Source: an uncultured bacterium
Lineage (GTDB): Bacteria > Patescibacteriota > Patescibacteriia > Patescibacteriales > UBA12465
Direction: 5' to 3'
Length of the DNA stretch: 64,000 nucleotides
Assembly (NCBI GenBank): GCA_903945435.1
Contig: CAJAVM010000003.1
Span: 1,352 to 65,351, forward strand
Shown: in pieces, positions 36,588 through 53,716 of the stretch
Layout of the letters: each line of letters begins with the position of its first letter
Position numbering within the stretch: the first letter of the stretch is position 1
The notes under the pieces: model-generated
Databases searched by the model: none
Told to the model about the DNA's origin: nothing
Seen by the model: only the letters and a program-made list of their open reading frames with translations
Translations under genes and position numbers: made by a program

Positions 36588-36661
36588 TCGGGGATCGTCT
36601 AACGGTAGGACAACAGGTTCTGGTCCTGTTTATTGGGGTTCGAATCCCTATCCCCGAGCCA
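36588..36661 (+). tRNA. tRNA-Gln(CTG) with encoded CCA
   Basis: Acceptor TCGGGGA/TCCCCGA-G-CCA, anticodon arm ACAGG-TTCTGGT-CCTGT, T-loop GGTTCGAATCC. Confidence 0.95.
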
Positions 36662-36748: not shown

Positions 36749-36916
36749 GGAGTCAAGTGAGTGTAAACTGGTGTAAATAATGAAAAATATTGGTTCGAAT
36801 ACGAGTTCTGTCAAAATATATTTTATAAAAATGTTTCCGAAAAGTTATTGCTATATTTCAGCCATTTTTAGTATGGGCTGGCTAAGTAAAACATGCTATT
36901 ATGTCAGTGTAATAAT

Positions 36917-37699
36917 ATGCCTAATTTTAATAACTTAGATTTAAAAAATTGGAAAGATTCAGAGATTTGGACTGATAGTCTTTGGATTATTAAAGAACGT
37001 GATAAGTCGGGGAAACACGACGGTTTTTATCATGGCAATTTTGTTCCGCAAATACCTCATCAATTAATTTTAAGATATAGTAAAGAGAATGATGTAGTCT
37101 TTGATCCATTTTTAGGTAGCGGCACAACGGCATATGAATGTGAAACTTTAAAGAGACATTTTGTTGGTATAGAAATTCAACCAACATTAGTTAAACATGT
37201 GCAATCAAAACTCGATAGTAAAAAGAATTTCTTTGAGATTTTAGCGGCTGATAGCACTGAAGAAAAGACTTTTAATAAAATAGAAGAAGCTTTAAAGAAA
37301 CATAAGAGAATAAAAGTTCAATTGGCTATTTTACATCCACCATATGCTAATATTGTTAAGTTCAGTGATAATAAAAACGACTTATCTAACGCTAAAGATT
37401 TAAGACAATTTTTGAATCAATTTTCTAGTGTTGTTAAAAATACTTTGACTATTTTAGAAAAAGGGCGGTATATTGCTATAGTTATGGGCGATAAGTATGA
37501 AAAAGGCCAATGGATACCGTTGGGTTTTTATTGTATGAATGAGGCTTATAAGTTGGGTTTAACGCTAAAAAGCGTTATAATAAAGAATATGGAGGGAAAT
37601 AGGGCTAAGCAAAATAAGGAAGGAATCTGGCGTTACCGAGCTCTAACTAGCGATTATTATATTTTTAAACACGAATATATATTAATTTTCAAATATTAG
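36917..37699 (+). CDS. Amino-DNA methyltransferase (N4-C/N6-A)
   Basis: FDPFLGSGTT SAM-binding motif precedes an HPPY catalytic motif; likely start MPNFNNL at 36917. Confidence 0.85.
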   Translation: MPNFNNLDLKNWKDSEIWTDSLWIIKERDKSGKHDGFYHGNFVPQIPHQLILRYSKENDVVFDPFLGSGTTAYECETLKRHFVGIEIQPTLVKHVQSKLDSKKNFFEILAADSTEEKTFNKIEEALKKHKRIKVQLAILHPPYANIVKFSDNKNDLSNAKDLRQFLNQFSSVVKNTLTILEKGRYIAIVMGDKYEKGQWIPLGFYCMNEAYKLGLTLKSVIIKNMEGNRAKQNKEGIWRYRALTSDYYIFKHEYILIFKY

Positions 37700-37700
37700 T

Positions 37701-38381
37701 ATGACAAATAATGAATTATTTTTAGAACTTGCGAAGCCAAATAAAGATGGTGTGAGTCGCTGGGTTCCAGTTTCAGAATTTATTGGTAAATATAAAAAAC
37801 TTCAACTTGGAAATGGTGGAAGTTGGTGCCGAGCTAGTTCAAGCTTGGCAAAGAAATACATTGTCGAGTTTGATAAAAATAAAACAGCCGGTAATTCTAT
37901 TGACGGAGTTCGCTTGGCTGGTTTTAATAATAAAAAAATATTAAACCAAAATATTAGAAAAGATATAAAAGATTTTTATAAAGTACAAAACTGTGTGATG
38001 CTTGGGGTTAATGGTAAATCTGAAAATACAAAGATAGAAATAGATCACAAAGATGGTAGAAAAGAGGATCACAGACTTTCAAATTTAAAAGAACAACAAA
38101 TAACTGATTTTCAACCACTTTCAAAAGCGGCAAATGATATTAAAAGGCAAATTTGCAAAAGATGTAAGGAAACTAATAAACGTTGGAATGCAAAAAATAT
38201 TAAGGGTAATCCATTTGATTTTTATGCAGGAAATGAAAATTATTCTGAAGAATTGGGATGTAAAGGATGTTACCAATATGATCCTGTAGAATACAGGAAA
38301 GTTGTTGTTAGAAAAGTTGGTGAATTATCAGCAAAGGAAGCGGTAGATAAGGTTTTTAAAAAATTATACCCAGAAGAATAA
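37701..38381 (+). CDS. Type II HNH restriction endonuclease, NlaIII/IceA1-like (predicted CATG specificity)
   Basis: GNSID...NQNIRKDIK...SENTKIEIDHKDGRK...NDIKRQICKRC...GCKGCYQYDP closely resembles the IceA1/NlaIII family as recalled. Confidence 0.82.
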   Translation: MTNNELFLELAKPNKDGVSRWVPVSEFIGKYKKLQLGNGGSWCRASSSLAKKYIVEFDKNKTAGNSIDGVRLAGFNNKKILNQNIRKDIKDFYKVQNCVMLGVNGKSENTKIEIDHKDGRKEDHRLSNLKEQQITDFQPLSKAANDIKRQICKRCKETNKRWNAKNIKGNPFDFYAGNENYSEELGCKGCYQYDPVEYRKVVVRKVGELSAKEAVDKVFKKLYPEE

Positions 38382-38390
38382 CAATAAAAT

Positions 38391-39455
38391 ATGAATTACA
38401 TAGGCAGTAAATTATCGTTGTTAGAGTTTTTAGAAAATTCTATAAAAAAAGTAGCTAAAAAAGACTGCAATGTTTTTTGTGACTTATTTGCTGGCACAGG
38501 TATCGTCGGATCATATTTTAAAAAGAAAGGTTTTAAAATTATAGCTAACGATATCCAGTATTACAGCTACGTTTTGAATAGACATTATATTAAAAATCAT
38601 AAACCACTTGAATTTAAAGGTTTGTTTGAATTGATTGCCACTTTGAAAAGTGAGGACATTAAAAATAGGGGAGCTATTGTTTTAGATTATTTGAATAATT
38701 TAAAAGGCAAAAAGGGATTTATTTACAATAATTATTGTTTGGGTGGGACAAAAAACAAGACTGAGCAAAGACTTTATTTTTCGGATGAAAACGGTTTACG
38801 ATGTGATGCTATAAGACAAAAAATAGAAGAATGGAATAACGGCAAAAAAATTAATGAGAATGAATATTATTTTTTATTAGCCAGCTTAGTTGAATCCATT
38901 GATAAATATGCTAACACAGCTTCTGTCTATGGAGCCTTTTTAAAGAGTCTAAAAAAATCTGCTTTAAGGCCTTTAGTTATGAGCCCTGCCGAATTAATAA
39001 TTAATGACCAAGAGCATGAAGTTTACAACGAAGATATTAATTCGGTTGTTAAAAAAATAAAGGGGGATATTTTATATCTTGATCCGCCATATAACCAAAG
39101 GCAATACGCCACGAATTATCATATATTGGAAACAATCGCTAAATATGATAGCCCTGATATTCATGGTAAAACTGGTTTAAGAGAGTATCAAAAACAGAAA
39201 TCTTCCTATTGTTCAACAAATCAGGTTAAAAAATCTTTTAAAGATTTAATCACTAATGCTGACGTTAAATATATATTTTTAAGTTACAATAATGAAGGAT
39301 TAATGAGTGCAGAAGATATAAAAGAAATAATGAGCACTAGGGGTAAATATGGATTTTTTACTCAGGAATATTCTAGATTTAAAGCAGATAAAAATAGGGA
39401 ATATAAAGCTGAAAAAACAGTAGAATATTTACATTATGTTGTCTGCAATAACTAA
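38391..39455 (+). CDS. Adenine DNA methyltransferase, M.NlaIII/M.HpyI-like
   Basis: MNYIGSK start, DLFAGTG, YLDPPYNQRQY and GKTGLR; adjacent to the NlaIII-like REase. Confidence 0.88.
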   Translation: MNYIGSKLSLLEFLENSIKKVAKKDCNVFCDLFAGTGIVGSYFKKKGFKIIANDIQYYSYVLNRHYIKNHKPLEFKGLFELIATLKSEDIKNRGAIVLDYLNNLKGKKGFIYNNYCLGGTKNKTEQRLYFSDENGLRCDAIRQKIEEWNNGKKINENEYYFLLASLVESIDKYANTASVYGAFLKSLKKSALRPLVMSPAELIINDQEHEVYNEDINSVVKKIKGDILYLDPPYNQRQYATNYHILETIAKYDSPDIHGKTGLREYQKQKSSYCSTNQVKKSFKDLITNADVKYIFLSYNNEGLMSAEDIKEIMSTRGKYGFFTQEYSRFKADKNREYKAEKTVEYLHYVVCNN

Positions 39456-40074
39456 CCATATCGATTCGATAGCGACTTCAGCCGTGACAGCTGTATTAGT
39501 CTTTTTTATCACTAGTCGTATAGATAATAAGTTAAGAGAAAAAAATAATAAACATGAGTTTATAAGAAATCGTGAGTATGATACCCATGAAAATGTTTAT
39601 GAAGAAATTCAAAAGCTAAAAAATGACCCAGAAACAGGCTGGGCTTTTCGTTCTAGTAAAAAAGAAAAATTAGAAGAGCAAAATAATTTAAGTTTTTCTG
39701 AGTTCTGTAATGTCACCAAGAAAATTGAATTTCATAATTTAAATATTGATGGAGCTGAATCTTATATTTTAGACATTATAAAAGATAAAATTATATCTGA
39801 TATAAAAAAGTTATCTCGTCGTAGTAAAAATAAAATTCAGCAAATTTCTAAGGAAATAATTATTAAATATGAAAATGATTTTGAAGTAATTAATTCCGAG
39901 GTAGATGATTTAGTGGAGGGCTTTGGTTATTATGAAGGTAAAAAATTGTCTTTTGATGAGAGTAATTATGTTAGTTATTGTAAGACGCAAAGAGAAATAG
40001 TTCTATTAAATTATTTAGCTCCATTATTAAATAAACTTGAAATTGAACTTTCTGATTATATTAATTTAAAGTAA
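39436..40074 (+). CDS. Hypothetical cargo protein with an N-terminal TM helix
   Basis: 212-aa ORF overlapping the MTase stop; hydrophobic segment SAVTAVLVFFI. Confidence 0.55.
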   Translation: MLSAITNHIDSIATSAVTAVLVFFITSRIDNKLREKNNKHEFIRNREYDTHENVYEEIQKLKNDPETGWAFRSSKKEKLEEQNNLSFSEFCNVTKKIEFHNLNIDGAESYILDIIKDKIISDIKKLSRRSKNKIQQISKEIIIKYENDFEVINSEVDDLVEGFGYYEGKKLSFDESNYVSYCKTQREIVLLNYLAPLLNKLEIELSDYINLK

Positions 40075-41413
40075 TCTTTTTTTCTCTCATAACCAGTTTA
40101 CTCTCTAAACAGCTTAATACTTCTCGCTTCTCAATAATCGACCCCTCTCTAAGCACGTATTTAGCGTAGTTTCTCATATCAACATCTTTCTGCTTATTAA
40201 AGTCTATTTCAGCTGTTCCGAGCAAGCCTTTACTGAATTTGTAGTATCTTTCAATTTCTTCATTGAATTGGTTTTTTAAGCCGATGTCATTTATATCTAG
40301 CTTATCAATTACTTGAGTTAATTGTTCAATTAATTCTTCTTCTCGAAGATAACCGCCTTTGCAGTTTATATTTTTAGCTCTAGAACATCCGTAATATACA
40401 TATCTTCTAACTGACCCATCGGCCAGTTTTTTAAATTTTTCTTCAGCCGAAATGCCTGATCCGCAATGTCCGCATTTGATAAGCTTGGTAAAGGCAAATT
40501 CCTTACAGTCTTGTCTAGAAATATTACCTCGGCTTAATTGCTCATTCGCTTTCGTATATAACTCTTTTGATATAATCGGATCGTATCCGCCTTTATACCA
40601 TTTATCGCTTCCAACTGGATATTCAAATTCGCCATAGTAGAATGGTTCTTTTATCATCCGCTGAACCATACTGATTGTCATGAACTTATTATTTTTTGTC
40701 CGCAAATCAGTTTCATCTTTTAGCCATCTATATATGCGCCGACAGCTATATTGCTCATTGGCTACTTTTTCAAATAATTGTTTTATTATTGGAGCTCTTT
40801 TAGGATCTATAAATACTTTTTTAGCGCCTTTGTCCGCATATTTATCATGTATGTATCCAATCGGCGCTCGCCCAGGACGCCAACCTTGTTCGCACTTAGC
40901 CCTTAATCCTCGTTTAACATTTTCGCCCTTATGGTCATTTTCTAATTTAGCTTGAGAACCTAGAATCATTAATAAAAATTTTTCATTAGGGCTGTTAGTA
41001 AATCTTTGGCCATGAGTTCTAATTTCTTTAATTAACCCCTGATCCATTAAATCAACCATCGCCCCTAAGTCGCCAGCATTACGGCTTAACCGATCAGGCG
41101 CCCAGCAGAGGATTCCATTAAAGATACCTCTTTTGATATCTGTAATTAATTTATTAAAAACTGGCCTCTGTCCAGAATCTTTAGCGGAATGACTTTCCTT
41201 TCTTACCTCAGTTATTTGAATATTATCCCTTATGGCCATTTCCAGCATTTCCTTTATTTGCGAGTCTATTGAAAGAGCCTGCCTTTCATCTTCTTCGGTT
41301 GATTTTCTGGCGTATAAACAGTATTTCATCTCTGTTTCTAATGCCTCTAAATTAGCCCTATTTTGGCCTCCTAGGGCTGTTTTATGCTCTAGTACCGTAG
41401 TTGCTTGGTTCAT
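40061..41413 (-). CDS. Large serine recombinase (resolvase, recombinase and Zn-ribbon domains)
   Basis: YARKST (catalytic Ser), DRLSRN, G.APIGY and CGHCG...YYGC. Confidence 0.93.
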   Translation of the reverse strand: MNQATTVLEHKTALGGQNRANLEALETEMKYCLYARKSTEEDERQALSIDSQIKEMLEMAIRDNIQITEVRKESHSAKDSGQRPVFNKLITDIKRGIFNGILCWAPDRLSRNAGDLGAMVDLMDQGLIKEIRTHGQRFTNSPNEKFLLMILGSQAKLENDHKGENVKRGLRAKCEQGWRPGRAPIGYIHDKYADKGAKKVFIDPKRAPIIKQLFEKVANEQYSCRRIYRWLKDETDLRTKNNKFMTISMVQRMIKEPFYYGEFEYPVGSDKWYKGGYDPIISKELYTKANEQLSRGNISRQDCKEFAFTKLIKCGHCGSGISAEEKFKKLADGSVRRYVYYGCSRAKNINCKGGYLREEELIEQLTQVIDKLDINDIGLKNQFNEEIERYYKFSKGLLGTAEIDFNKQKDVDMRNYAKYVLREGSIIEKREVLSCLESKLVMREKKITLN

Positions 41414-41488
41414 ATGGTTATAGTTGTTATAACCAATTAATGACGCTATTAAACAGGGAAGTCTAGGCCTAGCTGTTGGTAACTTAAC

Positions 41489-41517
41489 TTTACTTTTTGG
41501 CTATTTCAAGTTATATT
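41489..41517 (+). promoter_or_regulatory. sigma70-like promoter positioned at the 5' end of the structured RNA
   Basis: TTTACT-N17-TATATT; predicted +1 about 41523-41524 coincides with the first helix. Confidence 0.55.
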
Positions 41518-41522
41518 TTAAG

Positions 41523-41697
41523 TGCAAAACCACAAGTTAATATCGTGAAGCACGCGCCAATTTTTTTGGTAGCCTTGGCTTATTCGTATACAGGAACGGG
41601 CATTCCGACCTAATACGAGTAAGCGTCTTCACGGACACTTCTTGTGGTTTTGCAACCAAGGTCGGGTGTCCGTTTTTGTTTTTATAAAGCGGACATT
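41523..41697 (+). ncRNA. Unannotated highly structured RNA or leader with alternative pairings
   Basis: Perfect 14-bp helix 41523-41536/41641-41654; helices 41544-41550/41627-41633 and 41578-41589/41613-41624; G-U pairs fit only the + strand. Confidence 0.7.
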
Positions 41698-41711
41698 AGA
41701 TATTTATAAAT

Positions 41712-42147
41712 TAATTATAAATTTATGAAAAAATGTCCGTTTTGCGCCGAAGAAATACAAGACGATGCTAAAAAATGCCGTCATTGCGGAGAATATCTTG
41801 ATAAAGATAATAAAATTAAGGTAAGTAAGCATTCTGATTATGCTACGGTCACAATTATTTCCGCCATATTGCCCGTTATAGGCATTATTTTAGGAATTGT
41901 TTATCTCACTAAAAATAGCAAGGCAGATAAAAAATTAGGCGAACACGCAATTGTTGGCAGTATTTTATTTAGTATATTGTGGTTTCTAATTTTGTTAGTA
42001 TTAGGAATCCCTAATTTTATAGTTATTTAATATTAGTTTTATTAGCAGTCAGCTAATTATAAATTTATGAAAAAATGTCCATTTTGTGCAGAAGAAATTC
42101 AAGATGACGCAAAAAAATGCCGTCATTGCGGGGAGTATCTTGATAAG
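41712..42147 (+). repeat. Direct repeat of the translation-start region plus zinc-ribbon codons (41712-41805 and 42054-42147)
   Basis: 13 identical upstream nt and 27 codons differing only at 10 synonymous positions. Confidence 0.85.
41725..42030 (+). CDS. Zinc-ribbon membrane protein 1 (2 TM)
   Basis: CPFC-x10-CRHC N-terminus; two hydrophobic helices. Confidence 0.8.
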   Translation: MKKCPFCAEEIQDDAKKCRHCGEYLDKDNKIKVSKHSDYATVTIISAILPVIGIILGIVYLTKNSKADKKLGEHAIVGSILFSILWFLILLVLGIPNFIVI

Positions 42148-42477
42148 GGTAATGTTTCTAATAAAATCAACAAAGACGGTAGATTTGATGGATTCATTGA
42201 TTTCTTAAAACGAAAATATCCCGCTTATTCCGTCGTGTCTGAAAATTATGAAAAAAATTATATAGTGCTTAACAAACAGTTAAGCGGTTTAAATCCTTTG
42301 CTGTTTATTATATTACTTCTTCTTTGGATTCTGCCAGGCGTTATATATCTTATCGTGTCTTTAAGTAGTAAAAAAATATTATCATTGACCATACAATTTA
42401 ATGAAAACAATGAGCCAGTTTCTGTTAGCGACGCGAATTTCAATTTTTTAATTGTTAAATATAAAGAGAATAATTAA
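42067..42477 (+). CDS. Zinc-ribbon membrane protein 2
   Basis: Same 27-aa N-terminus as gene 41725; different C-terminus with LLLLWILPGVIY. Confidence 0.8.
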   Translation: MKKCPFCAEEIQDDAKKCRHCGEYLDKGNVSNKINKDGRFDGFIDFLKRKYPAYSVVSENYEKNYIVLNKQLSGLNPLLFIILLLLWILPGVIYLIVSLSSKKILSLTIQFNENNEPVSVSDANFNFLIVKYKENN

Positions 42478-42488
42478 TAGTGAGTAAT

Positions 42489-43949
42489 TTATCTCATCCC
42501 GTAGTACTCTTTATTGTGTTCCCAAATTCCAAAAGATGCAGGCCTTCTTTTATCTAAAATAATTTCATTTATCAGTAGGGTAAAAGCATCGACGAGATCA
42601 TCGTGTTTTTCTATGCCGAAGCCGACCATTTGACTTATTAATTCTTCAGCGCCATTTTTAGGAAATAGTATTCTTCCTGATTTTATTAAATATGTTGTCA
42701 TACTTAGCCTAGACAATTTATCATATCCGCCAATTTTAACGCCTTTGCTCGGGTACCCATCGCTTTTTAATTGCTGGGTGAAGGCACTTTGATAAGCCAC
42801 TTCTTCAACTAATATTTCTATTGGCTTGCCTCCTCCTATAACACTTGATGATAGTTTAATGTTCTCTATTGCTTCGGGAAATTCCATCCTTTTATTTATT
42901 AAATTGGGCAAAATATAAATTTTCATATCTTTGTCATATCCATACACCCTTGCACTTACCGCCGCCGTATAATCTGCGGTGGTTTTTGTTGATATAGCTA
43001 AATCAACGCCCATTTTTTCATAGCGATAATTATCTGGCGGAAGGGAATCATAGTACTGTAGCCATTCTTCACGGACAACTTGATCTTCGGCTGGTAATAT
43101 CTTCAGCATGAATTCTCGGTTGAAAGTGACCGCATCATAAGTATTTTTTAAATCTTCAATACTCTCATAAGTCGGGTATCTGCTAGGCCAGAGAACAACC
43201 CCATCTTCATTTATAAGCGGGTATGCTTTATAAACACCACCTCTGATTTTATTATCATTTATTTTTGCTTCCAGTCTTTTAATAACTGAGTCTTGGTGTA
43301 AGAGATTTCCAATTACAACAACAACTGTGTTCATATCTCCAGCTGGCAAAACTTCGCCCATTAGCCAATTAAATGATTTATCCCGCCCCTCCTTAGTTTT
43401 AACTGATTGAAGGTCTTCAATATCGTCGACAACAATTAAGTCTGGGCGGTATTGATTGTGTCTGGTTCCTCTAACGCTCTGTTCGACTGAAGCAGTTGCT
43501 ATTCTGGCATTGAATTTTGTCAGCACTAAAGTTTGTGAACCCCATTGATTAGGTTCTTCTTTGAATGGTCCCAGATCGCCTTTAAGTAATTGATTCTTTT
43601 CTAATTCACTCTTTATGCTTTGGAGCATGGTTTGTGCCTTTGCTTGGGTCTGGCTGATAAGAAGAACGTATTTCTTTTCAAGCTTACCCATAATCGCCCA
43701 GAGAGGATAAGAAAGACCCATGATAGTTGATTTGGCTGATCCTCTAAAAGCAACCACAACCATCATCTTATTTTTTGTGTCTTCAGTCAGACTAAACATT
43801 TCTCTTTGAAACATTGCTGTTTCCACTGTCACATAATGATTCATGTAAAGATAGAAAAACCAGTAATGACTTTCCTTAACAGTGGCCAAGCGAACCAGCC
43901 TATCGGTTAACAATTTATTAATTATTTTTTCAGTCGTTAGCTTTTTCAT
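42489..43949 (-). CDS. Phage terminase large subunit
   Basis: Walker A AFRGSAKST, Walker B LIVVDD, nuclease motifs GVDLA..DYTA and HDDLVDA. Confidence 0.9.
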   Translation of the reverse strand: MKKLTTEKIINKLLTDRLVRLATVKESHYWFFYLYMNHYVTVETAMFQREMFSLTEDTKNKMMVVVAFRGSAKSTIMGLSYPLWAIMGKLEKKYVLLISQTQAKAQTMLQSIKSELEKNQLLKGDLGPFKEEPNQWGSQTLVLTKFNARIATASVEQSVRGTRHNQYRPDLIVVDDIEDLQSVKTKEGRDKSFNWLMGEVLPAGDMNTVVVVIGNLLHQDSVIKRLEAKINDNKIRGGVYKAYPLINEDGVVLWPSRYPTYESIEDLKNTYDAVTFNREFMLKILPAEDQVVREEWLQYYDSLPPDNYRYEKMGVDLAISTKTTADYTAAVSARVYGYDKDMKIYILPNLINKRMEFPEAIENIKLSSSVIGGGKPIEILVEEVAYQSAFTQQLKSDGYPSKGVKIGGYDKLSRLSMTTYLIKSGRILFPKNGAEELISQMVGFGIEKHDDLVDAFTLLINEIILDKRRPASFGIWEHNKEYYGMR

Positions 43950-44344
43950 ATATTTTTATCAAGAGCTGCTAGTTTGAGTGCTTGCTTTACGGCTTGTTTC
44001 TGCTCTTTAGTTAATTCAAGAGTATGTTCAATTTTTCCTTTTAACTCCAGTTTGTCAGCATAAACAGGGTGATTATTTCTTAACCAAAAAAAGATAGCTT
44101 GCATGCTTTTATCCTTGATGCCTGATATCAGCTGTGATTCGGCGATGTCATTTATAAATAAGCGCCCCTCAAGGAAAGCTTTATCAACTTGCTCGGAAAA
44201 CTTTTTATCTTCCTTTTTCCAGCGATAGAAGGTTGTTCTGCCAATGCCGTTTTTTTCACAAACCAGCTGGATAATAGGAGTTTTTCTCAAGCCCTCAATT
44301 ATCAGTGCCTTGCCACTATTTTTTGCTTTTGTTTCTTTGTCCAT
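43946..44344 (-). CDS. Putative terminase small subunit (HTH protein)
   Basis: HTH (CEKNGIGRTTFYRWKKED) and AIFFWLRN; overlaps the TerL start by 4 bp. Confidence 0.7.
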   Translation of the reverse strand: MDKETKAKNSGKALIIEGLRKTPIIQLVCEKNGIGRTTFYRWKKEDKKFSEQVDKAFLEGRLFINDIAESQLISGIKDKSMQAIFFWLRNNHPVYADKLELKGKIEHTLELTKEQKQAVKQALKLAALDKNI

Positions 44345-44349
44345 ATTAT

Positions 44350-45129
44350 TTAATTTAATTTTTTAGCTTTTAATCCAGTTAACTTTTCAAATCTTTCTAT
44401 AATTGTCTGGCAATATTCTGGATCTAGTTCTATCATTAAGCATTTTCTTTTTGTTTGTTCGCAACTGAGTAAAGTCGTTCCCGATCCCCCAAAGGGATCA
44501 TATACATAATCACCTATCTTAGAACTGTTTAATATCAGTTGACGCATTAATGATAAAGGTTTTTGCGTAGGATGACTTTTGCTACTACTCGGTTTAGGAC
44601 AGAAGATTACACTCTTGTCTTTTGACTTAGTAAATAGATGTGTGCCGAACCATGAAAAAATTATGAGCTCGTGCTGAGGCAGATAATCTTTGCGCCCAAC
44701 TACGGCCTGATTTTTTACCCAAATTAGAAGTTGTGAAAAATGGATACCTATTTCATCCATTGCTTGTTTTAAAGCAAATAGCATGATGTCGCTATTAAAA
44801 ATGTAGATGGAATTTTTCTTATCCAGAAAGGGAAGTGCTAATGAAAGCCAACTTTTGGTAAATGTTTTATATTCATCATTGCTTTGAATCTGGTCATTAG
44901 CAATTTCTTTTGGCTTACTTAATTTTTGGGCAAATCCCGCTTTTGATTGGCAATACGCGCAACCATATGGTGGGTCGCAAGCAATTAGCCTGATTATGTC
45001 TTGGCCGATAAGTTTTGTAACGCTTTCTTGATCGCAGGCGTCTGAGCACATCAGCCTATGATTTCCCAGCTGATAAATTTCACCTGTCTTAATTAAGTTT
45101 TTTAGCTTTTGTGTTTGCATATTTTTCAT
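44350..45129 (-). CDS. Phage-type adenine DNA methyltransferase (beta class)
   Basis: DPPY, HPTQKP and YDPFGGSGTT; start likely at 45129 or 45120. Confidence 0.88.
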   Translation of the reverse strand: MKNMQTQKLKNLIKTGEIYQLGNHRLMCSDACDQESVTKLIGQDIIRLIACDPPYGCAYCQSKAGFAQKLSKPKEIANDQIQSNDEYKTFTKSWLSLALPFLDKKNSIYIFNSDIMLFALKQAMDEIGIHFSQLLIWVKNQAVVGRKDYLPQHELIIFSWFGTHLFTKSKDKSVIFCPKPSSSKSHPTQKPLSLMRQLILNSSKIGDYVYDPFGGSGTTLLSCEQTKRKCLMIELDPEYCQTIIERFEKLTGLKAKKLN

Positions 45130-46363
45130 AGCGATTAATAATAAGTTGGCAGAAAATTGGATTGATTTCCGCCGTGTAACATATTCTGTTAAGCTGTTCA
45201 CACGCTAGAAGAGTCGACCCCGATCCAGCGTAGATGTCTAATATAATATCGCCAGGCTTAGAACAGCGTTTTAAAGGCTTCTCGTGGAGATTTAAAGGTT
45301 TTTGTGCCGAGTGTTCGTAGTTTGATCCAATATCTCTTTTAGCTAGCCAGATATCTAAAATATCAATTATATTATCTATTGCCCTATTGCCTGATTCTAT
45401 TTCTTTGTTTAAAGCTTCACAGGCTTTAGTTGATAGTTTGGATAGGAACGGCTTGCCAGTTTTTCCGTATATACAAAATTCGGTCGCCTTATTAAATGCG
45501 ACATTAGGCGTAGGATTGAACGCACCCTTGAACCAGAAGCAGGCTCTTTCGTTCTTTATGCTTAGTTCTCGGTATAGAGTTTGGATTAACCAGATATTTG
45601 ATTGATCGCACCAAGTGAAGTAATGGCAATTTTCCTTTGCGTGTTTTAAAGAATTTTTTAGTCCAGCTAATAGAAATTTTTTATATTCATCATCGGTTTT
45701 ATTATCTTTAATATCTCCGCCGTAATTTGAACGATTACCGACCCCTTTATCATAATTTAGCCCAATATTAAAAATTGGATCATTATAGATTAGGTCGGCT
45801 TTGTTTTCTCCAAGTAATTTGTCCAGTGTTTCTGTTTTGTGGCTATCTCCACAAATCAAAAAGTGCTTGCCTAGCTGGAAGATGTCACCTAACTTTATGT
45901 CAGTCTTATTTATTTTCTGCAATTCCTTTTCTTCATTAAAATTATCATTCTCAATTTCAATGTCATTATCAAAAACCTGAAGTAAATCATCTTCATTTAA
46001 TCCAGATTCAAGTAAGATATCTAAATCTATTTCCTTGAGAAGCGAATAATTCCATGATCCATGATTAGAGTTGCTTCGAAGTAAATATTCCTTGAATTCT
46101 TTTTCATCTAGCTGACGGTTAGGAACTCTAACGTCTATTTCTTCTTCGCCTCTGTCCAGTAATTGCAAAACACGGATTCTTTGATGGCCAGCTAGAATCT
46201 GACCGCTTATTGTTATGGCAGGTATCTCGGCGAGATTGAATTTTTTAATACTGGCTTTAAGATCACTTAATTGTTTATCCGACATGATGCGCGGATTTTT
46301 TTCGTAGGGAAGCAGGTCGTTGACTTTCCGCTTCTCTGTGTGCCAAATGATTTGTTTGGTCAT
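45089..46363 (-). CDS. ParB/Srx-like domain fused to a DNA methyltransferase
   Basis: LLPYEKNPR...ILAGHQR (ParB-N); DPIF catalytic-motif variant; HSAQKP; DIYAGSGST. Confidence 0.87.
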   Translation of the reverse strand: MTKQIIWHTEKRKVNDLLPYEKNPRIMSDKQLSDLKASIKKFNLAEIPAITISGQILAGHQRIRVLQLLDRGEEEIDVRVPNRQLDEKEFKEYLLRSNSNHGSWNYSLLKEIDLDILLESGLNEDDLLQVFDNDIEIENDNFNEEKELQKINKTDIKLGDIFQLGKHFLICGDSHKTETLDKLLGENKADLIYNDPIFNIGLNYDKGVGNRSNYGGDIKDNKTDDEYKKFLLAGLKNSLKHAKENCHYFTWCDQSNIWLIQTLYRELSIKNERACFWFKGAFNPTPNVAFNKATEFCIYGKTGKPFLSKLSTKACEALNKEIESGNRAIDNIIDILDIWLAKRDIGSNYEHSAQKPLNLHEKPLKRCSKPGDIILDIYAGSGSTLLACEQLNRICYTAEINPIFCQLIINRYEKYANTKAKKLN

Positions 46364-47243: not shown

Positions 47244-47402
47244 ATATTGTTATTTTATCATTATTAGCCATTTTTAGGTAGTTTACTATGATTTATTAAT
47301 ATAATATTAGTAAACGAGATAGCTTAACCTTAGCAAAAAATACCTTGATTTTGCTTGTTTTTAGGAGTAAAGTCTAAATATAATTATAAAAGAAGCAAAA
47401 AT

Positions 47403-50231
47403 ATGATTCAACAAAAATTTCCAAGAGGCTCGGAGTGGAGAAAATGGGATTTGCACGTGCATACTCCAGCTTCATTTTTTTGGGTAGGAGGCAAAAAATT
47501 AAAGGATTTATCTGATGAAATTAAGGAAGGCCATGTTGAATCAGAAAAAGATGAAGAAATAAAAAAATTCATAAAAGCCGTTAATGAATCGGACGTAGCA
47601 GTTTTTTGTATAATGGATTATTGGACGTTTGATTGGTATATAGAGCTAAAAAAATATTTACTAAGGCACCCAGGAGAATTGAACAAAACCATTTTTCCTG
47701 GTATGGAGTTGCGTGTTGAATGCCCAGTTGACTATAGACTCAATATTCATTTTATTTTGTCAGATAAATTAACTGAACAGAATTTAAATGATTTTAAGTC
47801 AGAATTAATGATAAGATCAGTTAACAGAAAATTGTCGGAGGAGGCCTTAATTGCTTCTGCAAAAATGCTAGACGCCAGTAAGGCTGCGGTGCATGGATAT
47901 GGAGACCCGTCTGTTTTGTCCGATGAAAAGTTATTAGAATTAGGTTCTAAAACGGTAGAAATAACAAAAGATTCTTTAAATACAGCATTAAAAAATATTC
48001 CGCCAGAGTCAGGCTATATTATTTTACCATATGATACCTCCGATGGACTTATTGATTTGGATTGGAAAACTCATCCACACGATGATAATTATTTCATGCA
48101 AACGGCTAGTATTATTGAAACTAGAAAAGCGGATAATGTAGATTTGTTCAATTGTTTGAAAACTGAAGCAAATAAAGATTTTTTTATTAATTTTAGTAAG
48201 ACTATTAAAAATACACCAAAACCATGTGTTTCTGGAAGTGATGCCCATGAGTATAAAAATTATGGAAAATATCCATCTGATAAAATTACATGGGTTAAGG
48301 CTGACCCAACATTTGAAGGTTTAAAACAAATAATATATGAGCCAGTAGATAGGGTTAAAATTCAAGAGTCTAGACCGGAAGAAAAAGATGATTACCAAGT
48401 TATAGATAAAATAAATTTTATAGACAATAAGTTTTTGCCAGACGATATATTAATAAATGAAAACTTAACAACGATTATCGGAGGTAAGTCTACTGGAAAG
48501 TCAGTTTTATTAAGAAATATAGCTAAAACTATTGACCCCGAAGAAGTTAAAACAAGACTTGGAGAGGTTGGCTTATCTGAATACGAAAAAGATGTAGAAG
48601 GATTCAAGGTTATTTGGAAAGATGGGCAGGAAAATGTTAAAAATGAAGATAAAGGAGTTAGAAAAAAAATTATTTATATACCGCAATCATATCTCAACAG
48701 ACTGGTAGATAAAAAAGAAGATAAAACATCTATAGACGAAATAATCAGAAATGTTCTACAACAGGATGATGAGGTAAGCAAAGCATTTGAGGAATTGAAA
48801 GAGTTTGAAAGAAATAATGAAAAAGAAATTTCTAAAAATGTGGATGATCTTTTTTACTCCAAAAAAGATTTTGCTGAACAATCTGAACTTATCAAAAATA
48901 TTGGCGACAAAAGGGGTATTTCTGAACAAATAAAAAGATTAGAGGTAGAAATTAAGGATTTGAAGGAAAAGGCTGGCATGACCCCCGATCAGATTTCTAA
49001 TTATAATTTATTAACGGAGAAAATAGGCAAAATAAAAAAGGAGAAGGAAGTAATTAACAACGATTTAATTTATTTAGATGCATTATCAAAAACAGATCCA
49101 TTCTTATTTATAGACTTTGAAGGGATTTCGTTGGAAATTAAAAATGGAATTTCCACTGATTTTGATAAATTAAAAATGGAATTTATTATTTCATGGCAGG
49201 CTCGTATTAGTGTAAGTGTAGGCAAACTTAACGAGGATTTAATCACAAAGGAATTAGAATTAATATCGGCTACAGATGAGTTAAATCCGTTATTAGAAAA
49301 AGCTAGAGAGAGTCGTGCATTAAATGAAAAAATTTCTAGATTAGATGGCGAAAAAAGTAAACTTAACACAATAGAAAAAGAAGAGTTGAAGCTAGAAAAA
49401 ATTAGACAAAATTATTTTAAATCGTTGTCTAATATGTCCGAATTGCACTTGGAATTTTATAATAAATATTTTGACAGTAGGGCTAAAATATTGAAACAGA
49501 CTATCATAGATGGAGAGATAACTTTTGATTTAAACGTTTCTTTCAGAAGTTTGTATTTTCAGAAAAATATTAATGAAATATTTGACCAAAGAAAATTGTC
49601 TAAATTTACCGATGTTAATATATTAGATTATTCATATTCTGATAATATTAATTTAAAACAGGACATAAGCAAAGTTATTTCTGGAATTTTATCTGAAAAG
49701 TTAGTCTTGAAAAGTGGCTATTCAAAAAAGGATGCAATAAATAAGATGTTACAGAATTGGTTTTCTTTAGATTATGCTATTAAGCAGAATGATGACGATA
49801 TTTCACAGATGTCTCCAGGAAAGAAGTCATTTGTTTTATTGAAATTATTAATAGAGCTTGATAAAAGCAAGTGCCCTATATTGTTAGACCAGCCAGAAGA
49901 CGATTTGGATAACAGATCTATATATAATGATTTAGTTAGGTTTATAAAAGATAAGAAGAAAGGAAGGCAAATTATTATAGCAACGCATAATCCGAATTTG
50001 GTTATTGGTGCGGATGCTGAAAATATTATTGTTGCCAACCAAAGTGGTGAAAAGACCCCAAACAAAACTTTTCAATTTGAGTATGTCACAGGCTCTATTG
50101 AGGATTCTTTTGAAAATAGTGGAGAAACAGCAATTTTATATCAGAAAGGTATTCAAGAACACGCCTGTGATATATTAGAAGGCGGTGAAGATGCCTTTAA
50201 GAAGCGAAAGCGACAATATAGTTTTAATTAA
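47403..50231 (+). CDS. PHP phosphoesterase fused to an ABC/SMC-like ATPase (TrlF / Ppl-like defence protein)
   Basis: WRKWDLHVHTP and SDAH (PHP); GGKSTGKS, coiled coil, MSPGKK, LLDQPEDDLD and ATHN; likely ATG at 47403. Confidence 0.88.
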   Translation: MIQQKFPRGSEWRKWDLHVHTPASFFWVGGKKLKDLSDEIKEGHVESEKDEEIKKFIKAVNESDVAVFCIMDYWTFDWYIELKKYLLRHPGELNKTIFPGMELRVECPVDYRLNIHFILSDKLTEQNLNDFKSELMIRSVNRKLSEEALIASAKMLDASKAAVHGYGDPSVLSDEKLLELGSKTVEITKDSLNTALKNIPPESGYIILPYDTSDGLIDLDWKTHPHDDNYFMQTASIIETRKADNVDLFNCLKTEANKDFFINFSKTIKNTPKPCVSGSDAHEYKNYGKYPSDKITWVKADPTFEGLKQIIYEPVDRVKIQESRPEEKDDYQVIDKINFIDNKFLPDDILINENLTTIIGGKSTGKSVLLRNIAKTIDPEEVKTRLGEVGLSEYEKDVEGFKVIWKDGQENVKNEDKGVRKKIIYIPQSYLNRLVDKKEDKTSIDEIIRNVLQQDDEVSKAFEELKEFERNNEKEISKNVDDLFYSKKDFAEQSELIKNIGDKRGISEQIKRLEVEIKDLKEKAGMTPDQISNYNLLTEKIGKIKKEKEVINNDLIYLDALSKTDPFLFIDFEGISLEIKNGISTDFDKLKMEFIISWQARISVSVGKLNEDLITKELELISATDELNPLLEKARESRALNEKISRLDGEKSKLNTIEKEELKLEKIRQNYFKSLSNMSELHLEFYNKYFDSRAKILKQTIIDGEITFDLNVSFRSLYFQKNINEIFDQRKLSKFTDVNILDYSYSDNINLKQDISKVISGILSEKLVLKSGYSKKDAINKMLQNWFSLDYAIKQNDDDISQMSPGKKSFVLLKLLIELDKSKCPILLDQPEDDLDNRSIYNDLVRFIKDKKKGRQIIIATHNPNLVIGADAENIIVANQSGEKTPNKTFQFEYVTGSIEDSFENSGETAILYQKGIQEHACDILEGGEDAFKKRKRQYSFN

Positions 50232-50256
50232 TTTATAAATTGGCAAAATTAATAGT

Positions 50257-51012
50257 ATGTTTAATATTCAAAATATTATAAATTTTATACCAATTGCTGT
50301 AATTATTTCAGCTATTGTTTTTTTAGTAAAATTCTTTGGAAAAGCGAGCACCGATCAGGTTCCGTTTGCTGATAATAGATCTTGGCATGAAGAATTATTT
50401 GGAATTGAATTTTTTGCCACCAGACTTGCATCTCCTTTAATATTCATATTTATTTTATATTCACGTCACTGGAATCCGCTGAAATTTACATCGGATGATT
50501 TATGGCTTTTTATTTTTGGAATTATTTCGGTAGTCATGCTTAACTTAGCTTCAAAAAATGCATTTAAATTTTTTAAAGATGATAACTTTGACGACGGGAA
50601 TCTTTTATCACTTTTAAAAAAGTTATATAAAAATAAAAATGATGAAAAGTTTGAACAAGGAGAAAATTTGTTAATTCTAAAACACCTTGTTTTCCCAGTA
50701 GTCGCTTATTTTATGATGGTGATGCTCATTCTTTTTTATGAATGGGGATCTTATTACCATTTATTAATTGCAATAATTTATTTCTTATTTTTTCTCTTAT
50801 CGTTTGCCCTTTTATTATCATTAAAAAAACGGAATATATTAAAGGCTAATATAAAATTTATCAACAATGAGGAAGAAGAAATAAAAGATTGCAGGGTCTT
50901 AAGGATAAATGAAGATAATATCAAAGTTAAAATTACAAATAATAAAGTTATAATTTTAAATAAGTCCACTGTTTCGAGGATAGAATTTGTTAATAATAAT
51001 TTGGAAAACTAA
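50257..51012 (+). CDS. Multi-pass membrane hypothetical protein with a small beta-rich C-terminal domain
   Basis: About 5 hydrophobic helices followed by RVLRINEDNIKV...VIILNKSTVSRIE. Confidence 0.7.
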   Translation: MFNIQNIINFIPIAVIISAIVFLVKFFGKASTDQVPFADNRSWHEELFGIEFFATRLASPLIFIFILYSRHWNPLKFTSDDLWLFIFGIISVVMLNLASKNAFKFFKDDNFDDGNLLSLLKKLYKNKNDEKFEQGENLLILKHLVFPVVAYFMMVMLILFYEWGSYYHLLIAIIYFLFFLLSFALLLSLKKRNILKANIKFINNEEEEIKDCRVLRINEDNIKVKITNNKVIILNKSTVSRIEFVNNNLEN

Positions 51013-51016
51013 ATTT

Positions 51017-51571
51017 ATGGGCATAGCTTATAAAAATTTTTGGAGTTTAAATACCGACGAAGCCGTTGTGGCTGGTATTTTAAGAAATGCCACCAGCAAA
51101 GATGTGGAAGTGTTAATGCCGTTAAATGCCCAAATGAAAGGAGTCGATCTTTACCTGTTAAATATTAAGACTAAAAATATTATAACTATTCAAGTAAAGG
51201 GAAGCAGGGCGTATGAACCACAGAAGGCTGAAGTCAAAAAATATGGTGACGGTTCAGGCGGTTGGTTTTTCTTTCCAAAAGAAGTAGTAACTAATGCGAC
51301 AGCAGATTTTTTCTGTTTTTTGATTTACATACTTGAAGAAAACGGAAAAACAGGAAGAAGAATTATTACGCCACATACATTAATGATCCCGACGCAAGTT
51401 TTAAAAGAAAAAAGTTTAAAATATAAAAAAACCCATGGGGATGGCCGCTTTAGTTATAAGATTTGGGTTAACCCATCAGACAAAAAGGCTTTTGATTTTA
51501 GAGATGAAAAAATTGATTTCGATGATTTTTTGGATAAAAAAGGTTTTGCTGTGATTAATAAAGAATTATAA
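51017..51571 (+). CDS. PD-(D/E)xK family nuclease-like protein
   Basis: E...GVDL...IQVKGS catalytic pattern; likely ATG at 51017. Confidence 0.7.
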   Translation: MGIAYKNFWSLNTDEAVVAGILRNATSKDVEVLMPLNAQMKGVDLYLLNIKTKNIITIQVKGSRAYEPQKAEVKKYGDGSGGWFFFPKEVVTNATADFFCFLIYILEENGKTGRRIITPHTLMIPTQVLKEKSLKYKKTHGDGRFSYKIWVNPSDKKAFDFRDEKIDFDDFLDKKGFAVINKEL

Positions 51572-51585
51572 ATATTTTTCTTGGT

Positions 51586-52719
51586 ATGATTGAAGAATTT
51601 TTTAAAAAAGATCCAATTGAAAAAGTTGAAAGAGAACTGAGATTTTTGGTGTGGGATATCCTTTCTCAGAAATACGGTGAAGGCTGGATTTATAATGAGG
51701 AAATTATTTGCAAACAAAAATGGGCAGATGAATTAAAAAAAGTTTTTGAAAAAGATAAAAAAATACAACATAACGATAATATTCGTGAATTGTTGATTTC
51801 ATATGCCGATTTTTTTGACATAAAAAAGCTTATAAAGAAAAATCGATCATTATTTGAATCTGTTTTTTCTAATTTTGAAGTTATTGTCGGCTATATTGAA
51901 ACTATTATTGGTCTTCGTAATGCAATTAAACATCATCGCGATATCTCATTAAATCAGCAACATCTTTTAATAGGAATATGCGGAGAAATAATTGATGCAA
52001 TTAACCTCTGGAGAATAGGATCAAAAATAGAATTAGATCGAATCGTTTTGTCTTTTAATGATTATATTGCGACTGAGGGGAAAAGTGAAACGCAAATTTT
52101 GTCGGAGGCAATTGAAAAAATAAATGAAATTCAAAATATTTTTTTGCATTCTTTAAAAAGTAATAGTATTGAGATTTTTAATACGAATAATAGTAGTGAT
52201 TTTGAAACCGTAATTAATACTCAGTATATTAAAATTGAGATAAGAACAAATAATAAAATCACTCCTGACAGTAAAATAGACAATATAGAATATAAGACTA
52301 TTCATAGTCGCTTGAGCTACAAAGCTGAATGCCCAGTGTCCCTAGACTTGATAATGGCAAATACAAATAAAACCTATCGGGTTATAGAGTATCTATTAAA
52401 AGGATTTATAGATATTAATCGTTTGAAAGAATGGTCTGAAAGACAGGCGGGGCTAACTCCTGGATCAAGCGTTGCCACGAACGGATCTTTTGATAGTATT
52501 GATTATGGTTTTTTGGGTGGAAAAATTAGAGTTCAGGCGGGGAAGCATGTGAATGAATTAAATGAAATTTGCGGAAAATTATCTTTATTGAATAATATTA
52601 ATGCTGAAAAATGGAATCCGCATTCAAATATAACGCCTAATGATTTAATAGGATTTATGCTTGGTAATATTTCTTCAAGAACTATCATGAATCTTTACAG
52701 AGAATCATTAGGTAAATAA
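51586..52719 (+). CDS. Swt1-like HEPN domain protein (predicted RNase)
   Basis: VERELR...YG..W...YADF.DI..LI...LRNAIKH (RxxxxH motif). Confidence 0.72.
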   Translation: MIEEFFKKDPIEKVERELRFLVWDILSQKYGEGWIYNEEIICKQKWADELKKVFEKDKKIQHNDNIRELLISYADFFDIKKLIKKNRSLFESVFSNFEVIVGYIETIIGLRNAIKHHRDISLNQQHLLIGICGEIIDAINLWRIGSKIELDRIVLSFNDYIATEGKSETQILSEAIEKINEIQNIFLHSLKSNSIEIFNTNNSSDFETVINTQYIKIEIRTNNKITPDSKIDNIEYKTIHSRLSYKAECPVSLDLIMANTNKTYRVIEYLLKGFIDINRLKEWSERQAGLTPGSSVATNGSFDSIDYGFLGGKIRVQAGKHVNELNEICGKLSLLNNINAEKWNPHSNITPNDLIGFMLGNISSRTIMNLYRESLGK

Positions 52720-52723
52720 AAAA

Positions 52724-53716
52724 ATGTCTGGATACGATCAAACAATAAAAATAAAAGTAAAATTTCAAGAAGACACTAAAAAGTTTTTAAAATTTTTAAA
52801 TTCTGTTGGCAAAAAGTACAAACGACCAACAATAATAAATTATAGATATCTTGGAAGGGGCAGATTCAATCTTATAGTTGATGGTGGCCCTGGTGGAATA
52901 GATGCTTTATTTCAAGAATTAGTGCTTAACAAGGGGTTGTATTATTACGGTTGCACTTTAAATAATAAAAAAGATATTATTTCCAATGTCATCCTTCCCG
53001 TATTTAGGCAGTTAATAGATAGGAGATTCGAAAATTCTCAGTCAAGATTTTTAAGAAAACATATACTAGGAAAATCTGCTCAGACAGAATTTGTCCCTTC
53101 TAATGCCACTGGTCGATTTAGTTATTTAATGGAAATCATATATAGAAAATGGGATATCGGAATTATAACAAATAAAGATTATATAATAGAAATTGATGGG
53201 GTTTTAAATAGTTTTTTAATGAATAAACTCGGATATAAAGAGGGCGATAGGAGTCCGAAATTCGATAGACTATTATCTAGTTTTAAAAAATCATTTTTAA
53301 TAAATGATATGCAGGGAGTCTTTCATGATGTTCATAAAATGAAAACGGAAGTATATCATAGACTTAGTGATATTAAAACAAAGGACAAATTGGAATTTAT
53401 ATCTAATAACTTGTTAAGCTATTTTAATTATTTTGATGAATTTGAGGCATCACAAAAAATAAAAACGATTAAGATTAGAGGAAAGAGGTATAGGAGAATA
53501 AAATATGGTTATGAAAAATGTGTGGATAGTAACGGACTTCCTTATCTGAATGACGATGGGACTCCAATTGACTGGGTAAAAATATCAAGCGAAAAAGATT
53601 GTCATGATTGCGGGGTGAAAAGAGGCCAGTATCACGTTGAGGGTTGTGATGCTGAGGTTTGTCCGAAGTGCGGAGGGCAATATATTAGTTTTGATTGCGG
53701 ATTGCCAACTTATTAA
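52724..53716 (+). CDS. Hypothetical protein with a C-terminal Cys/His zinc-binding cluster
   Basis: CHDCG...H..GCD.E.CPKCGGQ...DC. Confidence 0.7.
   Translation: MSGYDQTIKIKVKFQEDTKKFLKFLNSVGKKYKRPTIINYRYLGRGRFNLIVDGGPGGIDALFQELVLNKGLYYYGCTLNNKKDIISNVILPVFRQLIDRRFENSQSRFLRKHILGKSAQTEFVPSNATGRFSYLMEIIYRKWDIGIITNKDYIIEIDGVLNSFLMNKLGYKEGDRSPKFDRLLSSFKKSFLINDMQGVFHDVHKMKTEVYHRLSDIKTKDKLEFISNNLLSYFNYFDEFEASQKIKTIKIRGKRYRRIKYGYEKCVDSNGLPYLNDDGTPIDWVKISSEKDCHDCGVKRGQYHVEGCDAEVCPKCGGQYISFDCGLPTY

Follow-up and report, generated by a model that had tools for sequence, protein, structure and literature searches.

C4 RNA is processed by RNase P, and type III toxin-antitoxin systems, such as ToxIN, are made of a promoter, a pseudoknotted RNA, a terminator and then a gene; few regulatory RNAs are known from Patescibacteria. 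The literature provides further terms of comparison: the processed CI RNA of P4 can terminate its own transcript (PMC4825925, PMC3632133), IsrK of the Salmonella prophage Gifsy-1 adopts alternative structures, which expose or occlude the ribosome site of the ORF that follows (PMC4825925), and in ZTP switches the terminator must displace the pseudoknot with its 3' side (10.1101/521930).

Here we describe a locus found in a window of 64,000 nucleotides (the whole stretch of DNA that was analysed), which is, as covariation among its homologues argues, a real, uncatalogued folded RNA of Patescibacteria islands, about 155 nt long by prediction and read from the + strand. With P4 CI and C4, the likeness lies in the loop of a structured RNA, complementary to a site just 3' in its own transcript, and in the phage-like element; the RNA described here differs by featuring one target, not two, covariation in cis, and a pairing which abuts a U tract, and by having no predicted 5' leader and no downstream antirepressor or replication genes. 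With IsrK it shares the location in a mobile element and, here by prediction, an own promoter and terminator and a short form accompanied by a read-through message; the IsrK-like occurrence of alternative structures over the downstream start was computed here in about a third of the cargo families. However, the fold is a three-way junction closed by P1, with a loop-tail pseudoknot and no Rfam match to IsrK, and, whereas IsrK controls the fixed orf45-anrP antirepressor, this RNA precedes unrelated cargo.

ZTP (pfl) and fluoride switches resemble the RNA in that an intrinsic terminator and a pseudoknotted fold compete for strands that both of them use. The differences are the lack of a ligand pocket or pathway and an additional anti-start layer; moreover, the pseudoknot captures here the terminator's own 3' side and thus reads as OFF, unlike in ZTP. 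In contrast to ToxIN, the RNA is present as a single copy, not as tandem repeats, and the gene behind it does not belong to a fixed toxin family. LOOT RNA is likewise an orphan structured RNA, but its Rfam consensus consists of four side-by-side hairpins over 121 nt, instead of the nested P1-P2-P3/P4 arrangement found here.

Methods

Homologues were collected by three routes. By blastn, 25 of 101 relatives were matched, 14 of them (besides the source genome) over the RNA itself; pattern searches returned 2 viral, 43 genome and 88 metagenome stretches, 80 of the 88 being obtained as loci; covariance models, run on 151 genomes at each rank, matched 23 in the order, 6 in the class and 6 in the phylum, the source genome being counted. 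After removal of one weak class match (L071) and of four truncated rows, the 153 aligned rows correspond to 120 distinct RNAs, 56 of which, at less than 90% identity, form the representative set. Since 32 of these 56 derive from patterns that fix most of both loop and tail, the conservation of these two elements is inflated; almost all compensatory changes come from covariance-model matches, and the models do not score loop-tail pairs. Significance was evaluated by shuffles, slid controls and parsimony on a FastTree tree, poorly resolved for distant members and, for the loop-tail pairing, built without the loop-tail columns. Pairing energies ignore pseudoknot penalties.

Distribution and relation to known families

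Nearly all copies of the family (120 distinct) lie in islands of Patescibacteria, and the 979-kb source genome carries one. GenBank phages and PLSDB plasmids gave no match to the RNA at E 1, and a looser viral pattern selected 10 stretches, none of which is a member of the family; order and class searches near distant matches were small and mostly returned the seed alone (1/5, 1/5, 1/2, 2/26 and 1/6). One copy (L204:15387-15542) belongs to a conjugative-looking island that includes a T4SS-pilin gene; the contig, 141 kb long, is part of an assembly of 4.2 Mb titled Bacteroidota, so that the host range may extend beyond Patescibacteria, although record titles are not all reliable. Another copy (L180:6-163) is chimeric, the two P1 strands belonging to different subtypes, and may be either a recombinant or a contig-end assembly artefact. 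Long near-perfect AT-rich palindromes, unrelated to the RNA, were noticed in three viral contigs (L191, L193 and L194, ~4971-5100).

The first-pass annotation had considered the RNA as unannotated, and the Rfam search agrees, no known family matching at the gathering cut-off: in Rfam 15 only RNase P and two tRNAs reach it within the window, where the best sub-threshold match is RUF4 (29.5 bits versus 55), and in 52 homologue loci only weak partial matches fall on the RNA (IS128, 28.6/80; AgvB, 26.9/56; mir-32, 23.7/70). The C4 (RF01695) and IsrK models have no match at E 10 either in 601 bases of the locus or in the homologue loci. LOOT RNA (RF03000) was tried and rejected, as it matches none of the RNAs of the 52 loci and nothing in the genome at E 1. 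A separate LOOT-like RNA (L091:2675-2805, 43.9 bits versus a cut-off of 46.4) lies 1 kb from a member of the family. No description of the RNA was found in the literature covered, the supplement of PMC5737381 and the cluster tables of 10.64898/2026.10.21.760802 being outside its scope; the main text of the latter (bioRxiv) mentions no Patescibacteria, CPR, serine recombinase or integrase, and PMC3993855, PMC2864571 and the LOOT text of PMC7657543 add nothing decisive on the RNA.

Folded core and promoter

The features of the locus are listed in Table 1.

Table 1. Coordinates, in the window, of the RNA, of its pairing partners and of the surrounding genes
Feature	Position	Strand	Remarks
tRNA-Gln	36588-36661		island lies after it
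Large serine recombinase	40061..41413	-	divergent from the RNA; frequent neighbour, not obligate
Sigma-70-type promoter	41489..41517	+	-35 TTTACT (41489-94), 17 nt, -10 TATATT (41512-17); spacing to P1 conserved
Predicted +1	about 41523-41525	+	putative
Folded core closed by P1	41523..41654	+	covariation; -59.2 kcal/mol
P1	41523-36/41641-54	+	14 bp, perfect
P2	41544-50/41627-33	+	
P3, variable hairpin	about 41552-74	+	GCCAA/TTGGT 41556-60/41566-70
P4	41578-89/41613-24	+	
Loop L of P4	41595..41611	+	15-16 bp pseudoknot with tail T
5' arm and apical stem of alternative terminator-like hairpin	41631..41658	+	incompatible with P1
5' arm ACGGACACTT	41631-40	+	
Apical stem TGGTT/AACCA	41645-49/41654-58	+	
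Tail T, shared switching strand	41659..41674	+	partners: L, 5' arm, D
U tract directly after T	41673..41683	+	predicted 3' end of short RNA; putative termination
Segment D	41683..41698	+	core GCGGACAT 41689-96; partners: T or, by prediction, the cargo gene 1 start
GCGGACA	41689-95	+	string given in the first-pass annotation
Start region of cargo gene 1	41703..41745	+	AUG at 41725
Cargo gene 1, zinc-ribbon membrane protein	41725..42030	+	101 aa
Cargo gene 2, zinc-ribbon membrane protein	42067..42477	+	136 aa; no D in front
Terminase large and small subunits, two DNA methylase genes	42489..46363	-	convergent on cargo

All the sequence strings reported in the first-pass annotation were recovered exactly where it had placed them, and the nested fold it drew from them stands for the most part: among the 56 homologues, both-sided changes occur at every pair of P1 (15/15), P2 (7/7) and P4 (12/12), the P3 hairpin being the exception, variable and 76.6% paired. 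The region folds at -79.4 kcal/mol (z -7.4), a value reached by 0 of 200 shuffles. The + strand, chosen at first from the G-U pairs, is upheld by the homologues, G-U cells exceeding A-C cells 127 to 26 in the P1, P2 and P4 stems and 65 to 7 in the pseudoknot; folding is also better on the + strand in 49 of 56 cases (-59.2 versus -57.7 in the window itself). The G-U excess and the better folding together indicate that the selected molecule is the + strand RNA.

As for the promoter, the annotated boxes are there, but a match of this kind is by itself at chance level (5 found, 6.9 expected); support comes from its position, as the last base of the best -10 box precedes P1 by exactly 6 nt in 43 of 55 homologues, some of which have unrelated upstream DNA, which suggests that the RNA starts at P1. 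Almost no leader is thus left 5' of P1 for RNase P cleavage, and P1 is followed by ACCA in 20 of 56 homologues. Three expression runs, with 5-6% of words (all contigs), cover pieces of the recombinase and cargo of relatives, but hardly any of the RNA itself. A GTWGRYAA motif (41475-41482 in the window), frequently repeated in tandem with a period of 11 bp, precedes the -35 box; where the serine recombinase is divergent, 39 of 42 loci have it, versus 19 of 77 others, and it is a possible operator.

Alternative partners of the tail

Comparison of the aligned sequences shows, by covariation, a core of P1, P2 and P4 followed by three mutually exclusive pairings of T, located before the U tract. 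The pairing with loop L, which in the window includes 16 pairs and one bulged U, covaries: 8 of 16 pairs change on both sides, a figure reached by 0 of 500 shuffles, and parsimony counts 19 double and 41 single pair-keeping changes versus 15 breaks, slid controls yielding 0-1 doubles. These 19 compensatory changes, independent on the tree, bear out the proposed co-variation of the loop with its target, and the L/T duplex is at or below -15 kcal/mol in all 56 homologues. One and the same tail sequence recurs in 99 of 120 copies, a figure inflated by the pattern searches, and at least 5 T are present in the last 10 columns, corresponding to the U tract, in 55 of 56 homologues. The bipartite target postulated in the first-pass annotation, on the other hand, survives only in this half: the CCTTGG/CCAAGG pairing, though present in the window, is 51% paired in homologues, much as in shuffles (235 of 500 as high), and was rejected as a conserved pairing.

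The alternative terminator-like hairpin, also noticed in the first-pass annotation, proved to be conserved, as it abuts the U tract in 55 of 56 homologues, and is weak in L091 and L094. Its apical GGUU/AACC stem features a three-way covariation among a P1 column, its P1 partner and the linker (CGC 22, TAT 7, ATA 6; n=56); at the GGAYAC junction pairing amounts to 89.7% and covariation is slight, and in distant members the 5' arm is the 3' strand of P1. Shuffling of this P1 strand weakens the hairpin little (median -18.4 versus -17.1). On these comparisons, pairing of T into the hairpin is real but weaker than L/T. In the window, the fold containing it reaches -50.5, versus -65.2 for the P1 fold, and at this cost of about 15 kcal/mol the hairpin should form only when P1 cannot.

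A third partner of the tail, placed further downstream in the first-pass annotation, was likewise recovered: T/D pairing is better than shuffles in 28 of 55 representatives, with many differing D sequences. D does not track variant tails, its own tail being better than the common one in only 8 of 21 cases, and several distant members have no D.

Genomic context

The island that follows tRNA-Gln contains, in order, methylases, the large serine recombinase, the RNA, the two zinc-ribbon membrane genes, and the terminase and methylase genes; the lysS-tRNA-Gln junction was located in 62 of 69 genomes of the genus. The RNA is oriented divergently from the integrase and opposite to the packaging genes, recombinase and terminase lying on the other strand. 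Two other regions of the window look like defence-like island cargo: a methylase-IceA(HNH)-methylase cassette (36893-39455) and a 958-aa PHP/ATPase-like gene accompanied by a Swt1-like HEPN gene (47355-53716). Cargo genes 1 and 2 share a duplicated leader and zinc-ribbon start of 100 nt, 89% identical (41712-41811 and 42054-42153). Gene 2 and the terminase large subunit converge with an 11-nt gap (42477-42489), and no terminator was detected between them in a scan of 41200-42600, so that each transcript may extend over the other gene in antisense. In 34 of 120 loci the gene opposing the cargo is terS-like.

Of the 120 loci, 110 have their next gene on the strand of the RNA and 6 on the opposite one, while in 4 it is missing, in keeping with the suggestion that the RNA is positioned to control the gene behind it. 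An ATG is found within 120 nt behind the RNA in 109 loci, in 45 at 40-49 nt. In two related genomes (L092 and L094) the next gene is truly convergent, with no ORF between, and the RNA leads nothing there; in L050 no sense ORF occurs within 120 nt. The suggested specificity for zinc-ribbon genes, in contrast, is not supported by the variety of the first genes, which fall into 69 clusters among 109 loci: besides zinc-ribbon proteins they encode bPH_2, DUF4352, Ltp, tRNA_anti-like, DUF805 and T4SS pilin proteins, as well as DNA methylase, GIY-YIG, SNase and proteases. For 41 of the 69 clusters no Pfam match was found, and in a PHROGs scan of 20 proteins, 4 cargo proteins match superinfection-exclusion families. 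No constant partner protein was found beside the RNA among the 120 loci: the commonest, the serine recombinase, occurs inside the fetched flanks in 58, and in 42 no other upstream gene is closer. Around distant members, ORFs resembling serine or tyrosine recombinases were noticed nearby, as read by eye.

Predicted pairing with the cargo start codon

In the window, when T is held elsewhere, the AUG of cargo gene 1 is computed to lie inside a 10-bp hairpin, stacked on a 13-bp helix between D and codons 3-7, whose core is ATGTCCGT at 41733-40. This D/start pairing (-16.8 kcal/mol) beats all swapped families, and the computed cost of opening the start region is 17.2 kcal/mol with T held versus 7.1 with T free; the D/start fold is the minimum in either case.

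The same pairing was evaluated in those 88 of the 109 loci whose ATG lies 24-66 nt downstream of the RNA, the start being shifted to a later in-frame ATG in three; single linkage assigned these loci to 36 cargo families. Compared with swapped starts, the native one falls within the best 10% in 13 families (3.6 expected; binomial p 2.5e-5) in a post hoc test, the idea having come from viewing part of the same data, and within the best 5% in 10; among control host genes of the same geometry the corresponding figures are 37 and 17 of 377. Against host starts the figure is 12 of 36 families, and against a null of synonymous recodings 9 of 36 score 0.1 or less. With T held, opening becomes costlier by at least 2 kcal/mol in 40 of 88 loci and in 12 of 36 families, and cheaper by at least 1 in 8 of 36 families. 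Pairing is absent or weak in 23 of the 36 families. This suggests that D is re-fitted to the starts of unrelated cargo genes in about a third of families.

Discussion

We interpret the RNA, with a probability of about 0.58, as a cis-acting two-layer switch, combining predicted termination and start-codon occlusion, placed before the swappable cargo of mobile islands. P1 would fold first and block the canonical terminator hairpin; T, on leaving the polymerase, would be caught by L, and the resulting GC-rich helix, set against the U tract, would probably release the RNA of about 155 nt. Where P1 is missing or bound, the canonical hairpin would form instead, the outcome being again OFF. In a read-through message, T kept by L would leave D free to cover the cargo start codon, also OFF; if L is blocked or too slow, T would pair with D and the start region would open, turning the cargo ON. 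As both layers are considered, L/T represents the OFF state in each; the ON state is possibly temporary, because at equilibrium the D/start fold prevails in the window. The RNA is predicted to work like an attenuator with a translational layer. Antisense oligonucleotides that pair beside a U tract are reported to be able to bring about RNA release (PMC3351154); a 15-bp helix within a closed loop of 22-24 nt would, however, be topologically hard to form while the polymerase holds the 3' end. As for the trigger, a second RNA copy or a protein is more likely than a metabolite.

The cargo placed under the RNA includes zinc-ribbon membrane, superinfection-exclusion and methylase genes, whose transcription and translation the RNA, in the model, appears to decide. 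The locus offers a compact and fully specified test case, both for whether a loop-tail pseudoknot can act as an intrinsic terminator, and for how a mobile island controls unrelated fresh genes by re-fitting about ten bases. Its sigma-70 promoter and the natural orthogonal L/T variants make it testable in E. coli, and it might serve as a modular switch. A bolder extension, which we regard as doubtful, is that of a portable gene-control module free of proteins, whose terminator stem would be built by a distant loop instead of a local hairpin, and whose released RNA would act back on its own message and on others of the same code; if true, it would be a timer or copy sensor for any island cargo (exclusion proteins, methylases, defence), with an anti-start segment re-fitted to each new gene.

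It is somewhat less probable still that self-feedback in trans, the short RNA acting on its own read-through message, is the main mode; such feedback could also be the trigger of the two-layer switch rather than its opposite. In a P4 CI-like variant, a trimmed form with a free L would bind T and shut the cargo off after an entry burst, while in an IsrK-like one the T of the short RNA would capture the L of the long message and turn the cargo on: the terminated short RNA of IsrK is reported to activate translation of its own read-through message (PMC4825925). The frequent identity of the tails, with the inflation noted above, implies that copies could cross-talk; several genomes or contigs do hold two copies, and stand-alone copies exist (L092 and L094). 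Covariation of L with T in cis extends to stand-alone copies, however, so that an unprocessed short RNA would have no free loop, and the predicted lack of a 5' leader, with ACCA in a minority of homologues, may speak against processing. In L009 an orphan tail with its U tract, 1.2 kb downstream of the RNA, lies just before a second cargo gene, and another orphan is found in a viral contig (L202:2906-2923); candidate trans targets or relics, these are the only two, one from 657,734 bases of flanks and one from the viral scan. The host genome contains only weak, scattered matches as trans targets, and no upstream target was found. A short RNA which is itself the product (a decoy, a protein partner or an antitoxin-like molecule), ended and protected by the pseudoknot, with the cargo expressed by unregulated leak, is improbable. 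It would account for promoter, core, pseudoknot and U tract being universal and D/start pairing patchy, for stand-alone copies, and for distant members devoid of D, but a constant protein neighbour would be expected, the recombinase being the closest to one, and the fit of D to the starts of unrelated genes would not.

Even less credit is due to a small-molecule riboswitch, in which a ligand chooses between pseudoknot and terminator. Competition of the two before a U tract recalls ZTP (10.1101/521930) and fluoride switches, and the 5' position, the prevalence of same-strand neighbours and the terminator and anti-start pairings would suit an expression platform; yet nearly all invariant bases lie in L and T and are accounted for by pairing, no conserved unpaired pocket or common cargo pathway is apparent, and the pseudoknot takes the very strand adjoining the U tract. 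Superinfection immunity against incoming related elements, in the P4 CI/P1 C4 sense proposed in the first-pass annotation, is very unlikely: the L/T code is common to islands and the context is mobile, but what T would govern is cargo alone, to the exclusion of integrase, terminase and replication genes, copies that share a code are found together within a single genome or contig, conservation of the second target is lacking, and no target was found elsewhere in the genome; the little leader and the scarce ACCA may argue to the same effect. Those cargo proteins that match exclusion families would, moreover, provide immunity by protein, not by RNA. A palindrome acting at the DNA level, an attachment site or a transposon-end relic might be imagined from the adjoining serine recombinase, but strand-biased G-U pairs, covariation and the fixed promoter and U tract, in a sequence which is single in its genome and occurs also without an adjacent serine recombinase, make this reading practically negligible.

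Two further diverged copies stand alone (L208:6573-6725 and L209:6379-6533): with no recombinase seen by eye within the fetched flanks, both are located between a pilin-like gene and a convergent sigma/anti-sigma-like pair.
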